A stretch of 10,471 nucleotides of DNA from a virus (lineage: Duplodnaviria > Heunggongvirae > Uroviricota > Caudoviricetes), in IMG/VR virus record IMGVR_UViG_2675903650_000003, positions 1 through 10,471 of that record. The stretch is one strand, 5' to 3'. This document shows, piece by piece, positions 1 to 10,471 of the stretch. The position numbers were made by a program, and so were the translations under genes. The stretch's first letter is position 1. Every line of letters starts with the position of its first letter. The notes below the pieces were generated by a model that was not told the origin of the DNA, ran no database searches, and saw nothing but the letters and a program-made list of their open reading frames with translations.

Positions 1-50
1 GTGGATCACTTTTCATCCGTCGTTGACACTCCCATGAAAAGACGCACGGT

Positions 51-359
51 ATGCGGGGCTGGGAATGTATTGTTGACGGTGTATCGGGCTTTGATATCAA
101 ACAAGATAACCAGCGAACCTTCTCAATTTCTCTCGAAAGAGCAAGCGGTACTGTTGAAGTTAAGTCCTTTGACATCCCGGTAACTATCTATCGCGATGTA
201 TTCAAATCTGGTACCGAATATCAACCTGGCGATACGGTCACATGGGGTGGTTGTATGTGGCATTGCAACGAGAAAACATGCGACAAGCCAGGTGAGACAG
301 GATCGAAAGGATGGACGCTTGCTGTTAAGAAAGGGCGAGATCTGAGGGATAAGCCATGA
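51..359 (+). CDS. Hypothetical small protein (102 aa) upstream of the connector gene; contains a C-x2-H-C-x4-C motif
   Basis: First ATG after the in-frame stop at 24-26. Its stop overlaps the ATG of the next gene (ATGA at 356-359), indicating translational coupling. The translation has protein-like composition. Shine-Dalgarno is weak. Function unknown. Confidence 0.45.
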   Translation: MRGWECIVDGVSGFDIKQDNQRTFSISLERASGTVEVKSFDIPVTIYRDVFKSGTEYQPGDTVTWGGCMWHCNEKTCDKPGETGSKGWTLAVKKGRDLRDKP

Positions 360-682
360 TTGAACTGGTGACGCTCGAAGAGGCTAAGTTGCATCTCCGT
401 ATTGACGACGATTACGGAGATTCAGACCTTACCTTAAAAATTCAGGGCGGCAGCGCAGCAATACTTTCCTACATTCAGGGAAGTCGCGCGTTAGTCGTGG
501 ATGATTCAGGAAAGCTTATTGATGGTGAACCGCTAACTCGCGTTCAGACGGCCCTGCTGGTTCTTCTTGGCTATCTTGACCGTAACCGCGGCGGCGAAGA
601 AGAAGAAAAGTTGAAACAGGGGGAACTTCCTTTTTCTGTATCAATGCTGATTTACGACCTCCGTAAGCCGACAATTATTTAA
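356..682 (+). CDS. Head-tail connector protein (phage gp6-like)
   Basis: 108-aa product with N-terminal LEEAKLHLRIDDDYGDSDL followed by helical ALLVLLGYLDRNRGG, which I recognise as the gp6-like connector pattern. Located immediately upstream of the head-tail adaptor and tail completion genes. Confidence 0.7.
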   Translation: MIELVTLEEAKLHLRIDDDYGDSDLTLKIQGGSAAILSYIQGSRALVVDDSGKLIDGEPLTRVQTALLVLLGYLDRNRGGEEEEKLKQGELPFSVSMLIYDLRKPTII

Positions 683-752
683 GGGGCATGTATGGCATGC
701 GCAGGATGTGCCAGACGGCGCGAGTGGATTAAAAAGTGGACGAGGATTGCCT

Positions 753-947
753 ATGAACGAGCAGCAGGTAAACGAACTAACGGCGGCACTGAAAGCGCTG
801 GCAACGTCTCAACTGAAACAGGCAGAAGCGATAAACCGTCTGGCTCAGGCGGATGAAACACTGATATCTCTGATTGCCAAAACGCTCGTTGATGAAATTG
901 ATGATGAGCTACCACCGCAGACCTATCTTGATGGTAAGCCGAGGTAA
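753..947 (+). CDS. Hypothetical small acidic protein (64 aa; alternative GTG start at 708 would give 79 aa)
   Basis: ATG at 753 is preceded by GAGG at 741-744. The GTG at 708 has AGGA only 2 nt upstream, so it is less likely. Product is helical and acidic with no recognisable motif. Stop at 945-947 lies 2 nt before the next gene start. Confidence 0.45.
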   Translation: MNEQQVNELTAALKALATSQLKQAEAINRLAQADETLISLIAKTLVDEIDDELPPQTYLDGKPR

Positions 948-949
948 TC

Positions 950-1282
950 GTGGAGTTTGCTAAACTGCGTCACCGCATCACTATTCAGCGACGAACAGCC
1001 ACCCAGTCACCAACCACAGGGGCAATGGAATACACCTGGAATGACCTTGCAGAGGTGTGGGGTAACGTGGTTGCCTCATCGGTCAGGGATTTCATTACAG
1101 CCCAGGCATCAAACGTAAAAGTAACGGCCAGAATCACTATCCGATACCGGGAAGATATCCAGGAGAAAGACCGTATTCTTTTCCGTGGCAAAATCTACAG
1201 CATTGAGGGGATTCTTCCTGACCCTGATAGTGGGCTCGAATATCTTACGCTTCCGTGCTCAGAGGGGGTAAGGGATGGTTGA
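950..1282 (+). CDS. Head-tail adaptor / head closure protein (SPP1 gp16-like, lambda FII-like position)
   Basis: GTG start at 950 preceded by GAGG at 941-944. 110-aa product with KDRILFRGKIYSIEGILPDPDSGLEYLTLPCSE, resembling the conserved core of head-tail joining proteins. Synteny supports the call. Confidence 0.65.
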   Translation: MEFAKLRHRITIQRRTATQSPTTGAMEYTWNDLAEVWGNVVASSVRDFITAQASNVKVTARITIRYREDIQEKDRILFRGKIYSIEGILPDPDSGLEYLTLPCSEGVRDG

Positions 1283-1760
1283 TAGCATTGATTTTAAGCT
1301 TGAAGGTGTAGATTCACTGCTTGGTAAGTTAGAAGCCATTACCTCAGAAACTAAGCGCAAAACAGGGCGCTCCGCACTGAGGAAAGCAGGAAACGTTATC
1401 GTAACTCAGATAAAGAGAAACGCAGAGCGACTCGACGATCCTCACACCGCACGTAGCATTGCTGATAACGCCGCGCTGCGCTGGAATGGTCGTATGTTTA
1501 AACAAACCGGTGATCTTGCCTTCAGGATAGGCATTCTTCAGGGAGCCGTTTTAAAAAAGCATCCAAGCACTGCGAAAGATGCCCCCACTCCTCACTGGCG
1601 TCTTCTTGAGTTTGGCACTGAAAAGATGGCAGCAAAACCGCTCGTTCGTGCTGCTGCAAATTCCAGACTGATAGAGGTTTTCAACACCTTCTCTGTTAAC
1701 TATGAAGCGGGGATTGACCGAGCTATCAAACGAGCACAGAAGAAAGGAGAGACGGCATGA
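1275..1760 (+). CDS. Tail completion protein, HK97 gp10 family (lambda Z-like position)
   Basis: 161-aa product containing WRLLEFGTEKMAAKPLVRAA, the EFGT signature I associate with the HK97 gp10 family. Overlaps the upstream gene by 8 nt and the downstream gene by 4 nt. Confidence 0.7.
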   Translation: MVDSIDFKLEGVDSLLGKLEAITSETKRKTGRSALRKAGNVIVTQIKRNAERLDDPHTARSIADNAALRWNGRMFKQTGDLAFRIGILQGAVLKKHPSTAKDAPTPHWRLLEFGTEKMAAKPLVRAAANSRLIEVFNTFSVNYEAGIDRAIKRAQKKGETA

Positions 1761-2122
1761 TTGCTCCTATTTTTCCTGTTTGCGCGTCGAGTCCTGAAGT
1801 CACTACTTTACTCGGAAGCAATCCGGTAAGAATTTACCCTTTCGGAATTCAGGACGATAATGTTGTTTATCCATACGCCGTCTGGCAGAACGTCAGCGGC
1901 TCTCCTGAAAATTTCCTTAACCAACGACCAGATGCGGACATTTATTCGCTTCAGGTTGATATCTATGCCGATACCCCTGATGAGGCGATTGCTGTAGCTC
2001 AAGCCATGCGTAATGCGATTGAGGTAAAAGCCAACATTGTTCGCTGGGGTAATCAGACGCGAGACCCTGAGACGCTCAGGTATCGATATTCTTTCGACGT
2101 TGACTGGATAGTCAACCGATAA
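1757..2122 (+). CDS. Tail terminator / tail completion protein (DUF3168-like, lambda U-like position)
   Basis: 121-aa product with RIYPFG...VVYPYAVW...LQVDIYA pattern. Position immediately upstream of the major tail protein gene. ATGA overlap with the preceding gene. Confidence 0.55.
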
Positions 2123-2134
2123 CAAACCTTCCAC

Positions 2135-2158
2135 AACCGGCCTTGAGCCGGTTTTTTT
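2135..2158 (+). terminator. Rho-independent terminator or attenuator between the tail terminator and major tail protein genes
   Basis: Perfect 7-bp stem AACCGGC (2135-2141) / GCCGGTT (2147-2153) with 5-nt loop, running into a run of seven T (2152-2158). Followed by GGAG at 2165-2168 and ATG at 2175. Confidence 0.6.
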
Positions 2159-2174
2159 ATACCCGGAGATAATT

Positions 2175-2672
2175 ATGTCAGTAGTGACTCAAGGCACTCA
2201 GATGTACGTTCTGAATAACGGCGTGGTCAGTGAAGTTGAATGTATTACTTCATTCTCACCAGGTAGTAGCCCGGCAGATCAAATTGAAGATACCTGTCTG
2301 AGCGAAACCAATACCCGTTCTTATAAAAAAGGTCTGCGCACCCCGGGTCAGGCAACCGTTGCTCTTAACGCCGACCCGGCAAACGCCAGTCACGTAATGC
2401 TGAGCAACCTGGCTGAATCAAGCGACCAGACCAACCTGACCTTCGCTATAGGCTGGGCCGATGGTACTGCAGATCCTACTGCTGCAACAGTCGGTGACCC
2501 TGATGCAGTTGATGGTCTGTCTCTTCCAGATACCCGTACCTGGTATGTATTCCAGGGTTATGTATCAGATTTCCCGTTTGATTTTCAGGCCAATACGGTA
2601 GTTCAGACTTCCGCGACTATTCAGCGTTCCGGCCAGGGCGTCTGGGTTCCTAAAGCACAGCCAACCAGCTAA
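2175..2672 (+). CDS. Major tail (tube) protein
   Basis: 165-aa product, rich in T/S/G/A/V and of likely beta-rich composition. Good RBS. Flanked upstream by a terminator and downstream by a stable hairpin. Occupies the lambda V position directly upstream of the G/GT chaperone and tape measure genes. Confidence 0.7.
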
Positions 2673-2692
2673 ACGTAATAATCTGCCAACTA

Positions 2693-2708
2693 GCGGGGGT
2701 AACCCCGC
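2693..2708 (+). promoter_or_regulatory. GC-rich hairpin with GUAA (GNRA) tetraloop downstream of the major tail protein gene; no U-tract
   Basis: GCGGGG (2693-2698) pairs with CCCCGC (2703-2708) around loop GTAA. It is followed by AATAAGAGAG, not a T-run, so it looks like an mRNA stabilising or processing structure rather than a full terminator. Confidence 0.4.
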
Positions 2709-2724
2709 AATAAGAGAGTAATAA

Positions 2725-3102
2725 ATGAAACTGACTCTGGATTCATTAAAACAGGCTGGTGCATTCACTGGGAGACCTGTTGAGAAGGAGATTACCTGGA
2801 AGCAGAGTGATAAGGAAATTACCGCTACCGTTTATATCCGACCTATGGGTTATCACGACGCAGTATCTACTGTTCTGTCAGCCGCGGGAAAGATTGATGG
2901 TGTTGCCGGACGTATCGCATCATCCATTTGTGATGAGAACGGGAATCCTGTTTTTACTGTTGCTGACATTACTGGTGAAGCAGACCCTGAGCGCGGTGCG
3001 CTCGACGGAAACCTTACCGTCGCTCTACTTGTCGCTATTCAGCAGGTTAACGACCTGGGAAAGACGAACTCAGCGCAGAAGACGAATTCTGGTGTGAATT
3101 AG
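2725..3102 (+). CDS. Tail assembly chaperone (lambda gpG-like), zero-frame product
   Basis: 125-aa acidic product directly upstream of the tape measure gene. RBS AAGAGAG at 2712-2718. Contains the slippery heptamer GGGAAAG near its 3' end. Confidence 0.8.
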   Translation: MKLTLDSLKQAGAFTGRPVEKEITWKQSDKEITATVYIRPMGYHDAVSTVLSAAGKIDGVAGRIASSICDENGNPVFTVADITGEADPERGALDGNLTVALLVAIQQVNDLGKTNSAQKTNSGVN

Positions 3103-3368
3103 TTCTCAACGGGATCGGCGGTCGCACCATTGCTGAAGCAAAAGAACGCGTTAGCGTTACAGAGTATCGCGACTGGGTTCTTTACCGTCAAAAGTACGGT
3201 AGCCTTAACGGAATGATGCGTACTGAGTGGGCCGCAGGCCTTATTTCTTCTGTGCTGGCTAACGTCAACCGTGGAAAAGATTCCCCCTCCTTCAAAGTAA
3301 CAGACTTCACACCACACATTAACGAGCCTTCCATTTCACTGGAGCAGGCTATGCAGGAGTGGACATAG
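2725..3368 (+). CDS. Tail assembly chaperone frameshift fusion product (lambda gpGT-like), made by -1 slip at 3057-3063
   Basis: The -1 frame (codons starting at positions divisible by 3) opens after a TAA at 3048-3050 and has no stop until TAG at 3366-3368, 2 nt before the tape measure ATG. Its translation reads ...DEFWCELVLNGIGGRTIAEAKERVSVTEYRDWVLYRQKYGSLNGMMRTEWAAGLISSVLANVNRGKDSPSFKVTDFTPHINEPSISLEQAMQEWT. No ATG-initiated + strand ORF of useful length covers 3103-3369. Confidence 0.65.
3057..3063 (+). promoter_or_regulatory. Programmed -1 ribosomal frameshift slippery heptamer G GGA AAG
   Basis: Heptamer GGGAAAG at 3057-3063 with zero-frame codons GGA (3058-3060) and AAG (3061-3063). 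This is the same heptamer as the lambda G/GT slip site. The -1 frame is open from 3051 to 3368. Confidence 0.65.
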
Positions 3369-3369
3369 C

Positions 3370-5895
3370 ATGGCTGGTAAATCCCTCGGAACGCTGACCA
3401 TTGACCTGATAGCTAAGGTTGGTGGATTTGTATCTGGTCTAAGCCAGGCTGAACGAGCATCTCAAAAATGGCGAAAACAGGTTCAGGCTGATGCAAAAGC
3501 GGCTGCGGTAGCATTTACTGGTTTTGCTACCGCGGCAAGTGCGGCAGCTATCGGTGTCGGTGTCGCCGGTTACAACCTGCTAAAAACAATGTCAAAACAG
3601 ATTACCGAAACAGACCGTTGGGCTAAGTCGCTCAATATGTCTACGCAGTCATTGCTTGCCTGGCAGTATGCAGCTGAAAAAGCTGGCGTATCCGGCGACC
3701 AGATGGCCGATATCTTCAAGGATATTGGCGATAAAATTGGCGATGCTGTACTGAATAAATCGGGTGAAGCAGTAGATGCTCTGAATGCACTCGGATTATC
3801 GGCTAAGAAATTATCCAGTGAATCACCAGATAAGCAGTTGCTGGCTATCAGCAATGCGCTCGGCAAGATTAAAACAAACGCTGAAAAGACCACAATCCTT
3901 GAAAGTCTTGGTAACGACCTTTCCAAGCTTCTCCCATTGCTTGATCAGGGAGGAGAAAAACTTCGTCAGTACATGGACGCGGCAAAACAGTTTGGCGTTG
4001 CCCCTGACGATGCTGATATCGAAAAGCTGGTAAAAGTAAACTCCCTGTTTGAGGACATGGAGACGCAGGTAAACGGTGTAAAAATTGAGATTGCCACCGG
4101 CCTGGCCAATGTTGACTTGTCAGGGTTACAGAACGCGATAACTGACATGGGGGATGTATTCAAAGATCCTCAGGTTATTCAGGGTTTGACAGACCTGGTT
4201 GGTGGTGTTGTTGATCTCGCGACCTGGCTTGTTAAAGTTGGTGCTGAAGCAGGGAAGCTAATTGACCTGTACAAAGGCGGTAAGGCTGTAGGTGACAATG
4301 CATCTGTAACTGATATAGAGCGCCGCCTCAACAATCTTAAAACTGATGTAGAAGATCAGGGATTCCTTGCCAGCTTTAACCGAATTGGTATGGACGTTGA
4401 CGGGAAAAAAGCTGAAATAGCGCAATTAGAACGCCGACTGTCCATCATGAAAGCCGGTAATAATCTTCCTCTCAGTCAGGCCACTGTAGGTGCGCCTTCT
4501 TCTTCCAGCAAAAATTATTCCTTAGGCTCAGGAGAAACTAACGGGAAAGCATCTCCAGATGCCGGGGCCAGAAAACTGGAGTCAGCATTTAAGTCTCTGG
4601 AAATGAGCTATCAGCGTCAGATAGCGCTGATTGACACAACTGGCAAAAAGAATCAGCAGGTAACCGAGCTTGAGAAGCTGCGTTTTGATTTTACATCTGG
4701 GAAATTAACAGGAATTAATGCAGCTCAGAAAGAGCGACTTGAGCAACTTGCTACTGAGATAGATCGCCTCAACTCACTTAAAAAAGCCAACGAAGAAAAT
4801 CTGAAACTTGTCGAATTTACCGCTAATTTACGTAAGCAAAATCAGAATGACCAGGCAGCTAATGATTCTGATTTTATCGGCGCAGGTATGGGAGACAAGA
4901 CTCGCCAGCGCATGAAGGAATTGCTGGATATCCATCGTAGTTTTCTCGACAGGCAGCAAGATCTACAGAAACAGTACCAAAGTGGTGATATAAGCAAATC
5001 GCTTTATGACCAGGAAACGGCAGCGTTACAGCAGGCGCTTGATGACCGTCTTGATATTCAGGAGGACTACTACAAAAAGTCTGATGCTCAGATGGGCGAC
5101 TGGCAAAGCGGGATAATGGACTCGTTGAACGATTATGCTGATAAATCAGCTGATTATTACCAGACTGCTGCAGATGCGATGACTTCTATTCTTGGTGGAG
5201 CAACCTCGGTTATTTCTGACAACCTTAATGACCTTGTGCACGGTGCAGAAGATTTAGGTGATTTCTTCAGTAATATTTTCTCTGGTCTTGGTGAAACAAT
5301 CATTAAAACCCTTTCTGATATGGCGGCGCAATGGCTGGTATATCAGGCAGTGCAATTGCTGGTAGGTAAATCCACTCAGGCAAGCGCAGCGGCATCAATG
5401 CTGGCAAACGCACAGGCATCATCTTTGCAGGCTCAAATCGCAGCATACGCATCGACAGCGGCAATTCCTATCGTTGGTCCCGCGCTTGCACCTGCAGCGA
5501 TGGCAACAGCTGCGGCAGTAACTGCACCACTTGTTGCAGCAGTTGGTACTTCTGCCCTGGCAGGTATGGCGCACGATGGTATTGATAGCGTCCCGGAAAC
5601 AGGAACATGGTTGCTCCAGAAAGGTGAGCGAGTTGTGACCTCTCAGACGTCAGCAAAGCTTGATGAAACACTGGACAGAGTAAATCAACAATCAACCAGC
5701 GGAGCAAGCTTCTCTCCCGTTATTAACATGAATGTTAACGGTGATCCGTCTGATACTCAGATCTCCATGATGAAGCAAGCCATGGCAGAGGGGGCAAAAC
5801 TTGGATATCAACAGGCAGCCAGCGACCTTGCCAGTGGGAAAGGTGACATTTCGAAAGCAATGATGCGCTGGAACACTAACAGGAGAACTGGTTAA
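3370..5895 (+). CDS. Tail tape measure protein (lambda gpH-like)
   Basis: 841-aa product. N-terminal region resembles the lambda-family tape measure domain. Long helical, coiled-coil-like middle. Ala/Gly-rich hydrophobic stretch near the C-terminus followed by WLLQKGERVV. Sits directly after G/GT and before the tail tip genes. Confidence 0.9.
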   Translation: MAGKSLGTLTIDLIAKVGGFVSGLSQAERASQKWRKQVQADAKAAAVAFTGFATAASAAAIGVGVAGYNLLKTMSKQITETDRWAKSLNMSTQSLLAWQYAAEKAGVSGDQMADIFKDIGDKIGDAVLNKSGEAVDALNALGLSAKKLSSESPDKQLLAISNALGKIKTNAEKTTILESLGNDLSKLLPLLDQGGEKLRQYMDAAKQFGVAPDDADIEKLVKVNSLFEDMETQVNGVKIEIATGLANVDLSGLQNAITDMGDVFKDPQVIQGLTDLVGGVVDLATWLVKVGAEAGKLIDLYKGGKAVGDNASVTDIERRLNNLKTDVEDQGFLASFNRIGMDVDGKKAEIAQLERRLSIMKAGNNLPLSQATVGAPSSSSKNYSLGSGETNGKASPDAGARKLESAFKSLEMSYQRQIALIDTTGKKNQQVTELEKLRFDFTSGKLTGINAAQKERLEQLATEIDRLNSLKKANEENLKLVEFTANLRKQNQNDQAANDSDFIGAGMGDKTRQRMKELLDIHRSFLDRQQDLQKQYQSGDISKSLYDQETAALQQALDDRLDIQEDYYKKSDAQMGDWQSGIMDSLNDYADKSADYYQTAADAMTSILGGATSVISDNLNDLVHGAEDLGDFFSNIFSGLGETIIKTLSDMAAQWLVYQAVQLLVGKSTQASAAASMLANAQASSLQAQIAAYASTAAIPIVGPALAPAAMATAAAVTAPLVAAVGTSALAGMAHDGIDSVPETGTWLLQKGERVVTSQTSAKLDETLDRVNQQSTSGASFSPVINMNVNGDPSDTQISMMKQAMAEGAKLGYQQAASDLASGKGDISKAMMRWNTNRRTG

Positions 5896-6368
5896 TGGCT
5901 AAAACGACCAGCATTAACTATCCGAATGATTACCTTCCTGTTCCATTGCAGGAAGGGTTCGGGTTAAAGCCAGTTAGCCCATTACTGAGAACCGAACTCA
6001 CATCCGGCAGGGCGAGGCAGAGGAGATTATATACTTCAACGCCAACTCAGGCCTCGGTTGCATGGCTGCTTACGGATCCGGAAGCTCAACTATTTGAGGT
6101 ATGGTTCAGGGACACCATTAAGGATGGCGCTGACTGGTTTAACATGCCTCTTCGATCTCCGTTAGGCGTTGTTGATGTTTATGTCTGTCGTTTCGTGGAT
6201 ATCTATGAGGGGCCGACAATTGAAGGCGGAAACTACTGGCGCTACACGGCCACGTTGGAATTGTGGGAAAGGCCTGTTCTGGCTCCTGGCTGGGCTGATT
6301 TTCCTGATTACATTATCAACAGCAGCATCATTGATATTGCGCTTAACAGGGAGTGGCCTGAGCCATGA
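5895..6368 (+). CDS. Minor tail protein, lambda gpM-like
   Basis: 157-aa product. Segment TQASVAWLLTDPEAQLFEVWFRDTIKDGADWFNMP aligns by eye with my recollection of the lambda gpM core (SVTLSVPREEATVLESFLEEHGGWKSFLWTP). TAATG overlap with the tape measure stop. First gene after the tape measure gene. Confidence 0.6.
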   Translation: MAKTTSINYPNDYLPVPLQEGFGLKPVSPLLRTELTSGRARQRRLYTSTPTQASVAWLLTDPEAQLFEVWFRDTIKDGADWFNMPLRSPLGVVDVYVCRFVDIYEGPTIEGGNYWRYTATLELWERPVLAPGWADFPDYIINSSIIDIALNREWPEP

Positions 6369-6847
6369 CGATTCTAAATAGGCTGTATGCCTCATCCGGG
6401 GAAGAGGTGATCATCGAAACCCTGCAAATAAACATCGGTACTGGTGTTTATTATCTTTGTAAAGGCTTCGATGACATCACCGCAACAACCGAAAGTGGCG
6501 TGGTGGTAACCTTTCAGGCTGCGGCTATTGATATTGCCCTTCCAGCAAGAAACAGCGATGGTACACAAGATTTGCAGTTTGCCATTGATAACATAGACGG
6601 GATTACTTCCACCGCCATACGGAATGCTCTGGATAACCTTTCAGAGGCATCGCTGACATATCGTAACTATGTCTCCACGGACCTCAGTGCTCCGGCATCT
6701 GTACCGTACACGCTGGCGATTAAAAGCGGGTCATGGACATCCATGCAGGCGCAGATTACTGCCGGATATATGAACGTTCTTGATACCGCATGGCCGCGCC
6801 ACCGATACACCCTCCCGTATTACCCCGGCCTTCGTTACATGAGTTAA
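6365..6847 (+). CDS. Minor tail protein, lambda gpL-like N-terminal domain only
   Basis: 160-aa product. VIIETLQINIGTGVYYLCKGF...VVVTFQAAAIDIALPARNSDGTQDLQFAIDN resembles my recollection of the lambda gpL N-terminal pattern (VVLWEIDLTEVGGERYFFCN...VTWQGRQYQPYPIQGSGFELNGKGTSTRPTLTVSN). It has a single Cys and no C-terminal Cys-rich region. ATGA overlap with the upstream gene. Confidence 0.55.
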   Translation: MTILNRLYASSGEEVIIETLQINIGTGVYYLCKGFDDITATTESGVVVTFQAAAIDIALPARNSDGTQDLQFAIDNIDGITSTAIRNALDNLSEASLTYRNYVSTDLSAPASVPYTLAIKSGSWTSMQAQITAGYMNVLDTAWPRHRYTLPYYPGLRYMS

Positions 6848-6856
6848 GGAGCAACA

Positions 6857-7237
6857 ATGTTCAATCCTGATAAATACCTTTCTGTCATATTGCAGAAGGG
6901 CGGTCGCACTTATCCTGAACTTGACTGCTTCGGCATAGTGAACGAGGTACGAAAAGACCTGGGGCTACCACTGTGGCCAGATTTTTCAGGTATAACAAAA
7001 GACGGCGGAGGTTTAAACCGAGAGGCCAGAAAGCTCATGCTTTCTCTGGAAAAATGCGCGCCGTGTATAGGTGCCGGTGCCGCCTGTTATTCCGGGTCAA
7101 CCGTTACTCATGTTGGTGTAGTCGTTGAAATTAACGGCCAATTGCATGTCGCAGAGTGCAACCCAGGAGTGAACGTTACCTTCCTTCCTGTCTCGCGTTT
7201 CAAACGTCGTTTTGTCAAAGTGGAGTTCTGGAAGTGA
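6857..7237 (+). CDS. Tail tip assembly protein with NlpC/P60-like papain-fold domain (lambda gpK-like, minimal)
   Basis: 126-aa product. LDCFGIV (Cys24, codon 6926-6928) matches the NlpC/P60 DCSG-type catalytic Cys motif. THVGVVV (His85, 7109-7111) and LHVAE (His97, 7145-7147) match the downstream His-containing motifs. Strong RBS AAGGAG at 6845-6850. Confidence 0.7.
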   Translation: MFNPDKYLSVILQKGGRTYPELDCFGIVNEVRKDLGLPLWPDFSGITKDGGGLNREARKLMLSLEKCAPCIGAGAACYSGSTVTHVGVVVEINGQLHVAECNPGVNVTFLPVSRFKRRFVKVEFWK

Positions 7238-9951
7238 CTATCAGAATTTATCCTTCACGGCTGCCTGGCGAGCCACTCGAAACTCATGAACATGGCGCAG
7301 TAACTATCCATCAGTGGCTTGCGAAGAACGTTCAGGGCTATAAGCCTGATATGAAGCACCCGATCACCGTTGATGTTGATGGAGAGAACATACCGCCTCA
7401 GGCATGGTTTGAATTTGCTATCAAATCAGACAGTGATGTCAGAATTTACCCTGTCCCTTATGGCGCTGTAGCTCTTGTCTGGATTGCCGTTGCTGTATCA
7501 GTTGCATCAGTCGCGTATGCTCTTTTCTTTGCTCCTGGTGTTGGTGACCTTGGCGGTTATTCATCAGGAACGGGAAACCCTCTTGATGTAAATCCTGCTA
7601 AAGCGAATAACGCAAAATTGGGCGACCCGATACGTGAGTTATTTGGACGAAGCCGTATTTATCCTGACTATGCAGTGCAGCCTGTAACAAGATTCTCAGT
7701 TGATGATCCAACGGTAATGACAGTTGAAATGTTTGTTGTTATGGGGAGAGGGCGTTTTTCATTTGGGGATGGCGATATTCGTGTAGGGTCAACTCCAATT
7801 GCTTCTCTTGGTGATGGGTTTAACTACACAGTGTATCAACCCGGGCAAAGCGTTAGTGGAGATCAACGATCAGAAAACTGGTTCAATTCCACAGAGGTTG
7901 GGGGAACCGCATCTGGTTCTGGTCTTGATATGGCGCAAACCGCGCCGGACACGGAAGATGTTGTTGCTAATTCGCTAACCGTTTCCGGACCAACAATAAC
8001 ATTTAATGGGCTGAGCACGGATGATGGAGATGAAACAACAAATGATCTTCCAGATACATGGACTGTTGGTGCAATTGTTGAGTTAATTGTTCCTGATTCC
8101 TATGTGGTAACTAATGATGGTGCTTACAGCAGAATTACCAGTGACACGCTGGAGGAAATAGCTCCTTATGTTGGGATGCCTGTAACTCTCTGGTACAACA
8201 GCATTGATTACCAACTATTCATTGCTGATTTTATACCTCACTCTGAGCCAGTCGGCGAAGATGTGATTACCGCATCAATAACCCTCGCTTACGATAGCGC
8301 CACTGGAACTCCGTTCACCGGGATTCCTGAAGGTTATGTCAGGCTATCTGTTTCCCATTCCGGAAGCGAATATAAGATTCTTGATATAGATGGTAGCTCT
8401 GTAACTCTGGAGCGGGTTATTGATGGCAGCGTTGATCCGTCATGGCCTGGATTTTCACCGCGCACAGTTCTTGATTTTGAAGCCAACGGTTTAAATGAGA
8501 ACGATAGTTGGATGGGACCTTTTCTGGCGTGCCCAGAAAATGAAGTTGTTGATATGTTCGAAGTAAACTTCTTCTTCCCAAACGGGATTTGTGGGTATAA
8601 CAAAAAAGGGAACAAACAATACCGTGAGGTAAAGTGGGAGATTCAGTACCGGCCATATGGTTCAGGCGTCGGGTGGATAAGTAAAACCGGATCGTACTAC
8701 CTCCAGAACATTAACGGACTGGGATTTACCGAAAGAATCACGCTGGATACGCCTGCGCTAGTAGAGGTGAGAGCTCGCCGCACGAACGAGCAGGGACAGA
8801 ATAACAGTCGCGATAACATGTACTGGCAGTCATTGCGAGGACGTTTGTTGTCACGGCCAGCATCGTATACTGGCGTCACCACAATTGCGGTTACTGTGGA
8901 AACTGGCGGTAAACTGGCAGCGCAGTCAGATCGCCGCGTAAACGTTGTAGCCACGCGAGTTTATGATTCTGGTGTGTCAAGGAGCATTTCTGGTGCTCTG
9001 TATCATATAGGTAATGAGTTGGGGCTAGCGATGGACCGTGAAGCTATTGACTCACTAGAAACTACTTACTGGACCCCTGGCAGTGAATTCTTTGACTATG
9101 CCACTACGGATTCTGTTTCTGCGCTGGAGATGCTTCAGAAGGTGACAAATGCAGGAAAAAGTTACTTCCTTCTTACCGATGGTCTGGCATCTGTAGCAAG
9201 GGAAGGTGTGAAAACGTGGACTGGAATAATCAGCCCACAGGAGATGACTGATCCGCTTCAGACTGCTTTCGTTGCTCCGTCAGCAGATGACTATGATGGT
9301 GTGGATGTTACATATATCAACGGCACTACATGGGCTGAAGAGACGGTGCAGTGCAGAACATCAGATAACCCAACTCCGGTAAAGATTGAGGACTATACGC
9401 TTGATGGTGTTCTTGACCAGGACCGTGCTTATCAGATAGGTATGCGACGTCTGATGAAGTACCTTCAGCAACGTTTGACTCATACCACAACAACGGAAAT
9501 GGATGCTCTCTGTTATAACGTTGGCGACAGGGTAGTATTCACGGATGATATTCCTGGTAGCAAAACAATAAGCACGTTGATTGAGGATATGAGTACAAGT
9601 GATGGCGTAACGACTATTACAGTATCAGAACCACTTGACTGGACATTCAACAACCCACGTGCATTGATACGCTATCAGGATGGTTCTGCTTCGGATTTGC
9701 TGGCAGCTACAAGGGTAAATGAATATGTTCTATCAGTAATAGAACAAGCAAAATTCAGCAATATCATGCTAAACGCCCCATCCATTGAATCGCCTCGTCT
9801 GATTTTCTGCGAGTCATCCCGTGTTGGATATAGCGCATTAATTTCAGAGATAGCACCGCAATCTGATGGAACATGTCAGGTAACGGCAAAAGAGTATCGC
9901 GACACTTTCTATCAGTACGATAACGCTACCTACCCCGGCAATGTAGCTTAA
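7234..9951 (+). CDS. Tail tip protein: lambda gpI-like N-terminal region fused in frame to a gpJ-like central tail fibre / host specificity protein
   Basis: Probable GTG start at 7234, overlapping the upstream stop (GTGA) with GGAG at 7222-7225. The track's ATG at 7156 lies inside the K-like gene. Residues 1-80 look ubiquitin-like, followed by a hydrophobic segment GAVALVWIAVAVSVASVAYALFFAPGV (about 7462-7545), then NNAKLGDPIRELFGRSRIY, which resembles lambda gpI (NVLPVLYGEMRVGS). The rest is a long beta-rich protein with J-like motifs (RRTNEQGQNNSRDNMYWQSLRGRLL). No stop codon separates the two parts. Confidence 0.7.
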   Translation: MTIRIYPSRLPGEPLETHEHGAVTIHQWLAKNVQGYKPDMKHPITVDVDGENIPPQAWFEFAIKSDSDVRIYPVPYGAVALVWIAVAVSVASVAYALFFAPGVGDLGGYSSGTGNPLDVNPAKANNAKLGDPIRELFGRSRIYPDYAVQPVTRFSVDDPTVMTVEMFVVMGRGRFSFGDGDIRVGSTPIASLGDGFNYTVYQPGQSVSGDQRSENWFNSTEVGGTASGSGLDMAQTAPDTEDVVANSLTVSGPTITFNGLSTDDGDETTNDLPDTWTVGAIVELIVPDSYVVTNDGAYSRITSDTLEEIAPYVGMPVTLWYNSIDYQLFIADFIPHSEPVGEDVITASITLAYDSATGTPFTGIPEGYVRLSVSHSGSEYKILDIDGSSVTLERVIDGSVDPSWPGFSPRTVLDFEANGLNENDSWMGPFLACPENEVVDMFEVNFFFPNGICGYNKKGNKQYREVKWEIQYRPYGSGVGWISKTGSYYLQNINGLGFTERITLDTPALVEVRARRTNEQGQNNSRDNMYWQSLRGRLLSRPASYTGVTTIAVTVETGGKLAAQSDRRVNVVATRVYDSGVSRSISGALYHIGNELGLAMDREAIDSLETTYWTPGSEFFDYATTDSVSALEMLQKVTNAGKSYFLLTDGLASVAREGVKTWTGIISPQEMTDPLQTAFVAPSADDYDGVDVTYINGTTWAEETVQCRTSDNPTPVKIEDYTLDGVLDQDRAYQIGMRRLMKYLQQRLTHTTTTEMDALCYNVGDRVVFTDDIPGSKTISTLIEDMSTSDGVTTITVSEPLDWTFNNPRALIRYQDGSASDLLAATRVNEYVLSVIEQAKFSNIMLNAPSIESPRLIFCESSRVGYSALISEIAPQSDGTCQVTAKEYRDTFYQYDNATYPGNVA

Positions 9952-9967
9952 TCCAAACATCAATATT

Positions 9968-9992
9968 ACCCGCTACGGCGGGTTTTTCTCTT
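9968..9992 (+). terminator. Rho-independent terminator downstream of the I/J-like gene
   Basis: Stem ACCCGC (9968-9973) / GCGGGT (9978-9983) with loop TACG, followed by TTTTTCTCTT. Next gene has GAGG at 9995-9998 and ATG at 10004. Confidence 0.6.
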
Positions 9993-10003
9993 ATGAGGCA
10001 AAT

Positions 10004-10465
10004 ATGACGACTTATAATACTGGCAATCCGCTGGGGTCTTCTGCTGCAAAAGATTTGTACGATAACGCCCAGAACTTCGATCATCTTTCTAATGATCAAT
10101 CCAATGAGTTATGGCCTGATCGTTTTGGTAATCCACGTCTTACTTGGCATGGTATGGAGTCAAAGTACAAAGAATCATTGTCAAAAATGGGTTGGATACT
10201 AATAAAATCATTTCAGGTTGGCGCAGAGATAACCTTGACTAATCAGGCATTGCACGACGAAACCTCTGGCGAGTATTACCGTTGGGATGGTGTATTACCT
10301 AAAACCGTTCCTGCTGGCTCTACGCCAGAAACGACAGGTGGGATTGGATTAGGTGCGTGGGTTAGCGTGGGTGATGCTTCATTGCGTGGAGATCTACTCA
10401 GCTTAGATGGTGAAAAATATATCGGTATCTGTCCTGACATTGCGGTGATGCTGCCAACTTACTGA
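10004..10465 (+). CDS. Hypothetical protein resembling the N-terminal anchor region of a tail fibre or tailspike (153 aa)
   Basis: Good RBS and ATG. AT-rich relative to upstream genes. Motifs GNPLGSSAAKDLYDNAQNFDHLSN and GIGLGAWVSVGDASLRGDLLS are reminiscent of N-terminal adaptor regions of phage fibres or spikes, but this is recalled similarity, not verified. In-frame TGA at 10463-10465, only 6 nt before the window ends. Confidence 0.5.
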   Translation: MTTYNTGNPLGSSAAKDLYDNAQNFDHLSNDQSNELWPDRFGNPRLTWHGMESKYKESLSKMGWILIKSFQVGAEITLTNQALHDETSGEYYRWDGVLPKTVPAGSTPETTGGIGLGAWVSVGDASLRGDLLSLDGEKYIGICPDIAVMLPTY

Positions 10466-10471
10466 TTTAGT

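Follow-up and report, generated by a model that had tools for sequence, protein, structure and literature searches.

The closest solved structure to the protein considered here is that of gp14 of Shigella phage Sf11 (PDB 9OCC chain E; PMC12724387), the 'baseplate hub 2 protein', of which each virion contains 3 copies and whose first 80 residues were left unmodelled in the cryo-EM structure (PMC12724387). The fold is shared by gpJ of phage lambda (PDB 8IYK, 8K35, 8XCG), and related hubs are encoded by Pseudomonas phage D3 (orf26; NP_061522), on the tail tip of which a literature search returned nothing directly relevant, as well as by the loci of the Klebsiella, Erwinia and 'Flyfo' TipJ proteins of ~1017 aa (KpF5 WMM91458, Gungnir39 ORF62). 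Here we compare with these systems the tail-tip hub gene at 7234-9951 of a 10,471-nt stretch of Caudoviricetes DNA (positions 1 to 10,471 of the IMG/VR record IMGVR_UViG_2675903650_000003; hereafter, the window), and in particular the interval 7700-8300 of this gene, which the initial annotation had singled out as an AT-rich and possibly mosaic or recombined segment lying between an I-like and a J-like part.

We conclude, with a probability of roughly 0.82, that the flagged interval is an unremarkable internal portion of a TipJ-family hub gene, that it contains no compositional island and spans two structural units, and that the gene is a patchwork produced by recombination. The features of the gene and its product on which this reading draws are as follows.

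7234..9951, + strand: TipJ-family tail-tip hub gene, 905 aa (PHROG 469, NF040662, Pfam, Foldseek)
7234..7458, + strand: beta-grasp (ubiquitin/ThiS-like) domain, residues 1-75 (AlphaFold2 secondary structure, weak ThiS match)
7336..7923, + strand: recombination tract relative to the prophage L008 (sliding identity, maximum chi-square)
7459..7569, + strand: hydrophobic low-confidence linker AVALVWIAVAVSVASVAYALFFAP, residues 76-112 (predicted local distance difference test score, pLDDT, <50)
7570..7938, + strand: conserved N-terminal beta domain of the hub, residues 113-235 (pLDDT 85-93)
7954..8538, + strand: family-specific all-beta variable module, residues 241-435 (identity, entropy, indels)
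7981..8100, + strand: 120-nt sample of the initial annotation, 40.8% G+C, unexceptional (percentile, codon shuffle)
8248..8253, + strand: optional-domain site, codons 339/340, empty here (alignments with long-form relatives)
8539..9915, + strand: conserved TipJ core with FNIII-A, Phage-tail_3 and C-terminal domains, residues 436-894 (NF040662, Pfam)

The gene encodes a TipJ-family tail-tip hub, a kind of protein that is already known and routinely annotated. Residues 1-903 of 905 match positions 2-902 of the 903-position PHROG 469 profile (tail protein; E=6.1e-264), and residues 435-894 cover the entire NCBIfam model NF040662 ('host specificity factor TipJ family'; model positions 1-477 of 477) with 432.8 bits against a cut-off of 140. 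The Pfam matches are FNIII-A_GpJ at residues 436-535 (score 34.2, gathering 27) and, marginally, Phage-tail_3 at residues 681-775 (23.7, gathering 23). A single-sequence search of the PDB sequences with the hub yielded nothing useful, and a profile search was required: the 150-sequence profile of the hub family matches both Sf11 gp14 (9OCC_E; E=5.5e-41) and lambda gpJ. Among solved structures, the AlphaFold2 model of the hub (mean pLDDT 85) is matched in Foldseek by Sf11 gp14 (9occ_E; 842 alignment columns, E=5e-44), by lambda gpJ with E values of about 1e-22 to 1e-24, and by the hubs of T1, T5 (pb3), JBD30 and Chi. By homology to Sf11 gp14 and lambda gpJ, the protein would assemble as a trimer into the cone by which the tail tube is closed. 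The GTG start codon at 7234 overlaps the stop codon of the upstream gpK-like open reading frame (ORF; GTGA) and is preceded, 8 nt upstream, by GGAG (7222-7225); the mechanical ORF start at 7156 is an artefact. Many Klebsiella and Escherichia prophage records in GenBank call members of this hub family 'kinase' and the neighbouring gene 'nitrite transporter'; both labels are evident annotation errors, which have spread into NCBI and UniRef names.

The domain organization of the hub follows that of Sf11 gp14, with which it shares the beta-grasp domain, the hydrophobic stretch, the first hub domain and an alignable C-terminal core, despite an identity of 17% in the structural alignment. Residues 1-75 are predicted to fold in the order beta-beta-alpha-beta-beta-beta (pLDDT 81-88), align with residues 4-80 of Sf11 gp14 and match Pfam ThiS with E=0.049, which is under the gathering score. 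As regards the label 'I-like', no match to Lambda_tail_I, the gpI model, was found at the hub N-terminus in the Pfam scan, whereas the ubiquitin-like secondary-structure pattern and the position directly after the gpK-like gene are consistent with it. In lambda, gpI is the product of a separate gene, unlike the fused beta-grasp N-terminus of the window hub; such an I-like/J-like fusion was rejected as an oddity, given that the solved Sf11 gp14 and the D3 homologue share this N-terminus. A hydrophobic stretch of ~25 residues that follows the beta-grasp domain was left unplaced by AlphaFold2. For the conserved domain at residues 113-235, column entropy in the family is lowest at residues 121-150 and 211-240, and profile positions 5-204 align with Sf11 gp14 4-193, as do, in the TipJ core, profile positions 452-886 with Sf11 gp14 380-823. 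Positions 205-451 are the only part of the profile that has no sequence match to Sf11 gp14, both flanks being matched; the Sf11 counterpart of window residues ~205-451 shows no detectable sequence similarity and is ~60 aa shorter. Within this part, the module at residues 241-435 is modelled mostly with pLDDT of 78-91, with a dip to ~53 at residues 261-270 (below 50 at 264-266), and a Pfam scan of residues 236-435 detected no domain, even at E up to 10. The flagged interval straddles the conserved domain and the variable module, its 5' 40% falling within the former.

Lambda gpJ, at 13-15% identity, matches the window hub in fold and shares the Phage-tail_3 domain; residues 119-248 of gpJ, corresponding to FNIII-A, align with profile positions 433-565, and from the offset of the matched domains gpJ appears to have no equivalent of the 241-435 module. 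It does possess a long C-terminal receptor-binding extension that the window hub lacks. D3 orf26 is, like the window hub, a short form devoid of the ~110-aa domain discussed below and is colinear over its full length, but comes from a phage of another host genus and differs by an 18-aa insertion after residue 48 and by deletions at 250-270 and 330-350 of the variable module. The Klebsiella, Erwinia and 'Flyfo' proteins are 45-64% identical to the window hub over the full length and are encoded in the same operon layout, but carry the ~110-aa domain after residue 339, which is missing in the window.

The flagged stretch is neither an insertion nor a shuffled domain, as follows from its colinearity among homologues and its confinement to a single family. 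Among the best 120 database homologues, 62 are 900-909 aa long, with identity of up to 95-97% in Citrobacter, and the relatives of ~905 aa are colinear throughout the flagged interval. The D3 protein (909 aa, 31-34% identity) aligns with residues 3-901 in one piece. This colinearity, including that of D3 orf26, together with the end-to-end match to PHROG 469, led us to reject a foreign insertion, and the proposal that the segment might prove to be one in homologue alignments fails down to 31-34% identity. When residues 232-440 alone were searched against 1.84 billion representative proteins, 83 matches were recovered; those of full length correspond to residues ~230-440 of proteins of 816-1179 aa from the same family, and the remainder are fragments. 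These matches are split in two where the ~110-aa insert is present. A domain shuffled from another protein was likewise rejected, the module being confined to the same family and the same position.

Base composition does not set the interval apart: there is no compositional island, and the low G+C content of 7981-8100 is unexceptional. This sample, put at about 41 percent by hand count in the initial annotation, has an exact value of 40.8%, compared with 45.1% for 7700-8300, 46.4% for the gene, 47.1% for the tape measure gene and 47.6% for the whole window. For 120-nt windows taken across the entire stretch (mean 47.6%, standard deviation 4.0%), it ranks at the 6th percentile, whereas the 600-nt interval 7700-8300 ranks at the 16th percentile. 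The lowest 120-nt value (35.8%, at 4757) is located within the tape measure gene itself. As a null model, the codons of the hub gene were shuffled 2,000 times. The lowest 120-nt G+C observed in the gene is 0.375 versus a mean minimum of 0.351 in the shuffles (P(min<=obs)=0.955). Nor does G+C vary more between windows of 120, 300 or 600 nt than it does in the shuffles (P=0.37-0.80), and fixed-interval tests gave P=0.11 at 7981-8100 and P=0.23 at 7700-8300. Thus, G+C in the hub gene is as even as random codon order gives, and neither the sliding-window nor the codon-shuffle analysis revealed a significant deviation where the AT-rich island had been placed. A hand count over 120 nt is unable to identify an island in a phage gene of 47% G+C because codon-order noise alone yields troughs of ~35%. 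The reported richness in Asp, Thr, Ser, Gly and Asn is genuine although modest, these residues accounting for 44.8% of residues 156-356 versus 35.5% elsewhere (Fisher p=0.02), and residues 156-356 contain zero lysine.

What does distinguish the 3' part of the interval is its variability. Residues 241-339 are 43-51% identical to those of the ~1017-aa relatives, whereas other segments are 58-89% identical, and indels of at least 5 aa cluster at residues 250-400, while the column entropy of residues 241-345 is comparable with that of the N-terminal 110 and C-terminal 130 residues. Residues 241-435 are the most divergent and most length-variable module of the protein. The expectation that the segment would be variable in an alignment of homologues is therefore borne out for its 3' half, which belongs to this module and includes the optional-domain site at 8250/8251, but not in the form of an insertion.

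That prophage tail genes recombine into patchworks is textbook knowledge, and the hub gene is no exception. The genomes closest to the window are those of Citrobacter, with the hub proteins of a C. freundii metagenome-assembled genome (L012), a JGI metagenome contig (L007) and a prophage in a C. freundii chromosome (L008) being 97%, 95% and 88% identical to that of the window, respectively; L007 has an integrase downstream, which indicates that it is a prophage too. In sliding comparisons, DNA identity between the window and L008 is 92-97% at ~7345-7870 and 70-81% on either side. Maximum chi-square analysis placed breakpoints at 7336 (chi2 63) and 7923 (chi2 99), with divergence of 5% within the tract and 23-27% in the flanks. 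Identity at third codon positions amounts to 84-88% within the tract and ~40% outside, which argues that the tract does not merely reflect protein conservation. Its right junction, ~7923, corresponds to residue ~230, where the conserved domain gives way to the variable module, and places one homologous-recombination junction inside the flagged interval. Relative to L007, identity is 97-99% up to ~8600, 87-92% at 8620-8990 and 71-85% from ~9370, falling to 60-67% in the tailspike, and similar identity patches are found in the tape measure gene. The sharpest and clearest cassette boundary is therefore at the 3' end of the gene, from ~9370 onward and beside the tailspike gene, and the host-range cassette seems to consist of the hub C-terminal domain plus the tailspike. 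We regard the patchwork as the ordinary outcome of homologous recombination between prophages of this kind. In the DNA comparison with the two close relatives, 7700-8300 does not behave as one exchanged unit, a reading that was rejected: its 5' part belongs to the 7336-7923 tract and its 3' part to another block, and the breakpoints relative to L008 fall at 7336 and 7923 and none at the 7700 or 8300 ends. Accordingly, the notion of a mosaic or recombined domain stands as regards DNA-level mosaicism with a junction at ~7923 inside the interval, but the interval is not one unit and composition is no marker of it.

Several observations weigh against this interpretation. The recombination inference rests mainly on a DNA comparison of three sequences (the window, L007 and L008). 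Furthermore, the block 7954-8250 (residues 241-339) shows a mild dip to 41.4% G+C, with third-position G+C of 0.29 versus 0.39 for the gene; its fixed-interval P value of 0.03 is uncorrected, fails correction for the ~9 segments examined and pertains to a block delimited post hoc, from homology. Of four long-form relatives, two have a G+C content in this sub-region that is 4-5 points under the mean for the gene, and in the other two it is approximately level with that mean. We consider this dip to be a weak trend at most.

The most conspicuous length variation in the family involves an insert of 108-111 aa located exactly after residue 339 (nt 8250/8251) in 50 of 223 homologues, 3 of these being proteins of the D3 clade; overall, the extra domain is present in about 27% of relatives. 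It is because of this insert that the Klebsiella, Erwinia and 'Flyfo' proteins reach ~1017 aa, whereas the window hub, which lacks it, represents the empty-site allele. The optional domain at 8250/8251 concerns loci L001-L004 and L024-L049 and proteins P0060, P0069, P0191, P0206 and P0216. A third length class, of 926-934 aa (L019-L022 and L032, from Pectobacterium, Serratia and Symbiopectobacterium), carries small insertions (5-9 aa) in the variable module, following residues 396 and 399. In the model of the window hub, the insert site maps to a loop between strands (residues 335-347). A model of the long-form segment, comprising the variable module and the insert, predicts that the insert folds independently, in the order beta-beta-alpha-beta-beta (pLDDT ~88-96); in Foldseek, this segment showed weak likeness to tail sheath, FliD and flagellin outer domains and no match to 9occ_E. 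When the core of 202 taxa, 47 of them long, was placed on a neighbour-joining tree with Vibrio phage HY01 at the root, the long forms branched from among short ones; for instance, the core of P0216 is 72% identical to its nearest short form and 56% to its nearest long form. Fitch parsimony on this tree requires at least 11 changes in the presence or absence of the insert, with a short root state. These patterns raise the unlikely scenario that the loop after residue 339 is a plug-in site, at which D3/Sf11-type siphophage hubs have acquired, lost or exchanged a portable ~110-aa domain on at least ~11 occasions, and that this domain, along with the variable module, fine-tunes a secondary interaction between the tail tip and the cell surface; the empty-site allele would be the one found in the window.

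Alternatively, the short form could be a deletion derivative, whereby an ancestor within the Enterobacterales possessed the ~110-aa domain, the Citrobacter lineage lost it and 8250/8251 is the resulting scar. Consistent with this possibility, most of the non-Citrobacter Enterobacterales genera in the genome scan have forms of ~1010-1035 aa, the long form P0060 has a core nearer to short forms (80% versus 77%), and identity between clades is 37-45% for the inserts versus 31-36% for the core, as would fit an old domain that was lost repeatedly. However, the root is reconstructed as short, the D3 clade is overwhelmingly short, and with at least 11 state changes the direction of change at any single node is uncertain. 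On balance, we find the deletion scenario possible but doubtful.

The variability of the module could also have arisen without horizontal transfer, if the mild AT bias and the sequence divergence of 7954-8250 reflected diversifying selection on a hub surface that contacts receptors or glycans and thus serves as a secondary host-range determinant. Yet when relatives with >75% identity are considered, divergence in the segment does not exceed that in the N- and C-terminal ones, the dedicated tailspike gene directly downstream is the obvious primary receptor-binding protein, and the fold similarities are weak, all of which makes this explanation improbable. Finally, a horizontally acquired AT-rich cassette at 7700-8300 that came from a donor of lower G+C, entered between the I-like and the J-like part and alters the host range would agree with the 40.8% G+C of 7981-8100, the 41.4% of 7954-8250 with its low third-position G+C, the high variability of the encoded module and the one junction within the interval, but is largely refuted and very improbable given that the composition lies inside codon-shuffle noise and is undercut by windows in the tape measure gene, that homologues are colinear to 31% identity with the module found only in this family and at this position, and that the interval comprises two different blocks without breakpoints at 7700 or 8300.

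Reading the flagged stretch as an ordinary part of a recombining hub gene, we envisage the following arrangement. On the predicted trimeric cone, the variable module (residues 241-435) would be placed on the exterior, under little structural constraint, because it accommodates substitutions, indels and even an entire additional domain; there, it may make contacts with the cell surface or with adjacent proteins of the tail. Receptor binding would fall primarily to the tailspikes, which are found in Sf11 as in the window phage. The patchwork of the gene is the product of homologous recombination between related prophages, with the ~7923 junction falling at a boundary between structural units.

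The window as a whole corresponds to an entire Logan contig (SRR1981103_241) and contains a siphovirus head-tail joining and tail module, with the following genes and regions around the hub gene.

Upstream part of the window: major tail and chaperone region, ~72% DNA identity to HK022
3370-5895: tape measure gene
5895-6368: PHROG 384 protein
6365-6847: DUF1833 protein
6857-7237: gpK-like protein, 126 aa
From 10004: tailspike N-terminus

The order tape measure, small tip proteins, gpK-like protein, hub and receptor-binding protein is the same in the window, L007, L008 and D3, the D3 genes being annotated as tape measure, structural protein, minor tail protein, hub and tail protein. A megablast search of the phage collection with the hub gene returned no match, and matches of the whole window were limited to HK022-like major-tail DNA and short stretches of the tailspike N-terminus. 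The window is a piece of a Citrobacter prophage with a D3/Sf11-type siphovirus tail tip. The tailspikes of relatives contain SGNH/GDSL esterase domains. In the tail assembly chaperone ORF (2725-3102), a canonical in-frame slippery heptamer, G_GGA_AAG, was read by eye at 3054-3060, and the -1 frame remains open until the TAG at 3366-3368; together, these features predict a programmed frameshift product of the lambda G/GT type. The equivalent stretch of L008 has a weak Phage_tail_T match.

As a discovery, a member of the routinely annotated TipJ family carries little weight. The domain map of the hub, the fixed site after residue 339 and the cassette boundary at the 3' end may, however, be useful for engineering and annotating the tail tips of D3/Sf11/Chi-type phages.

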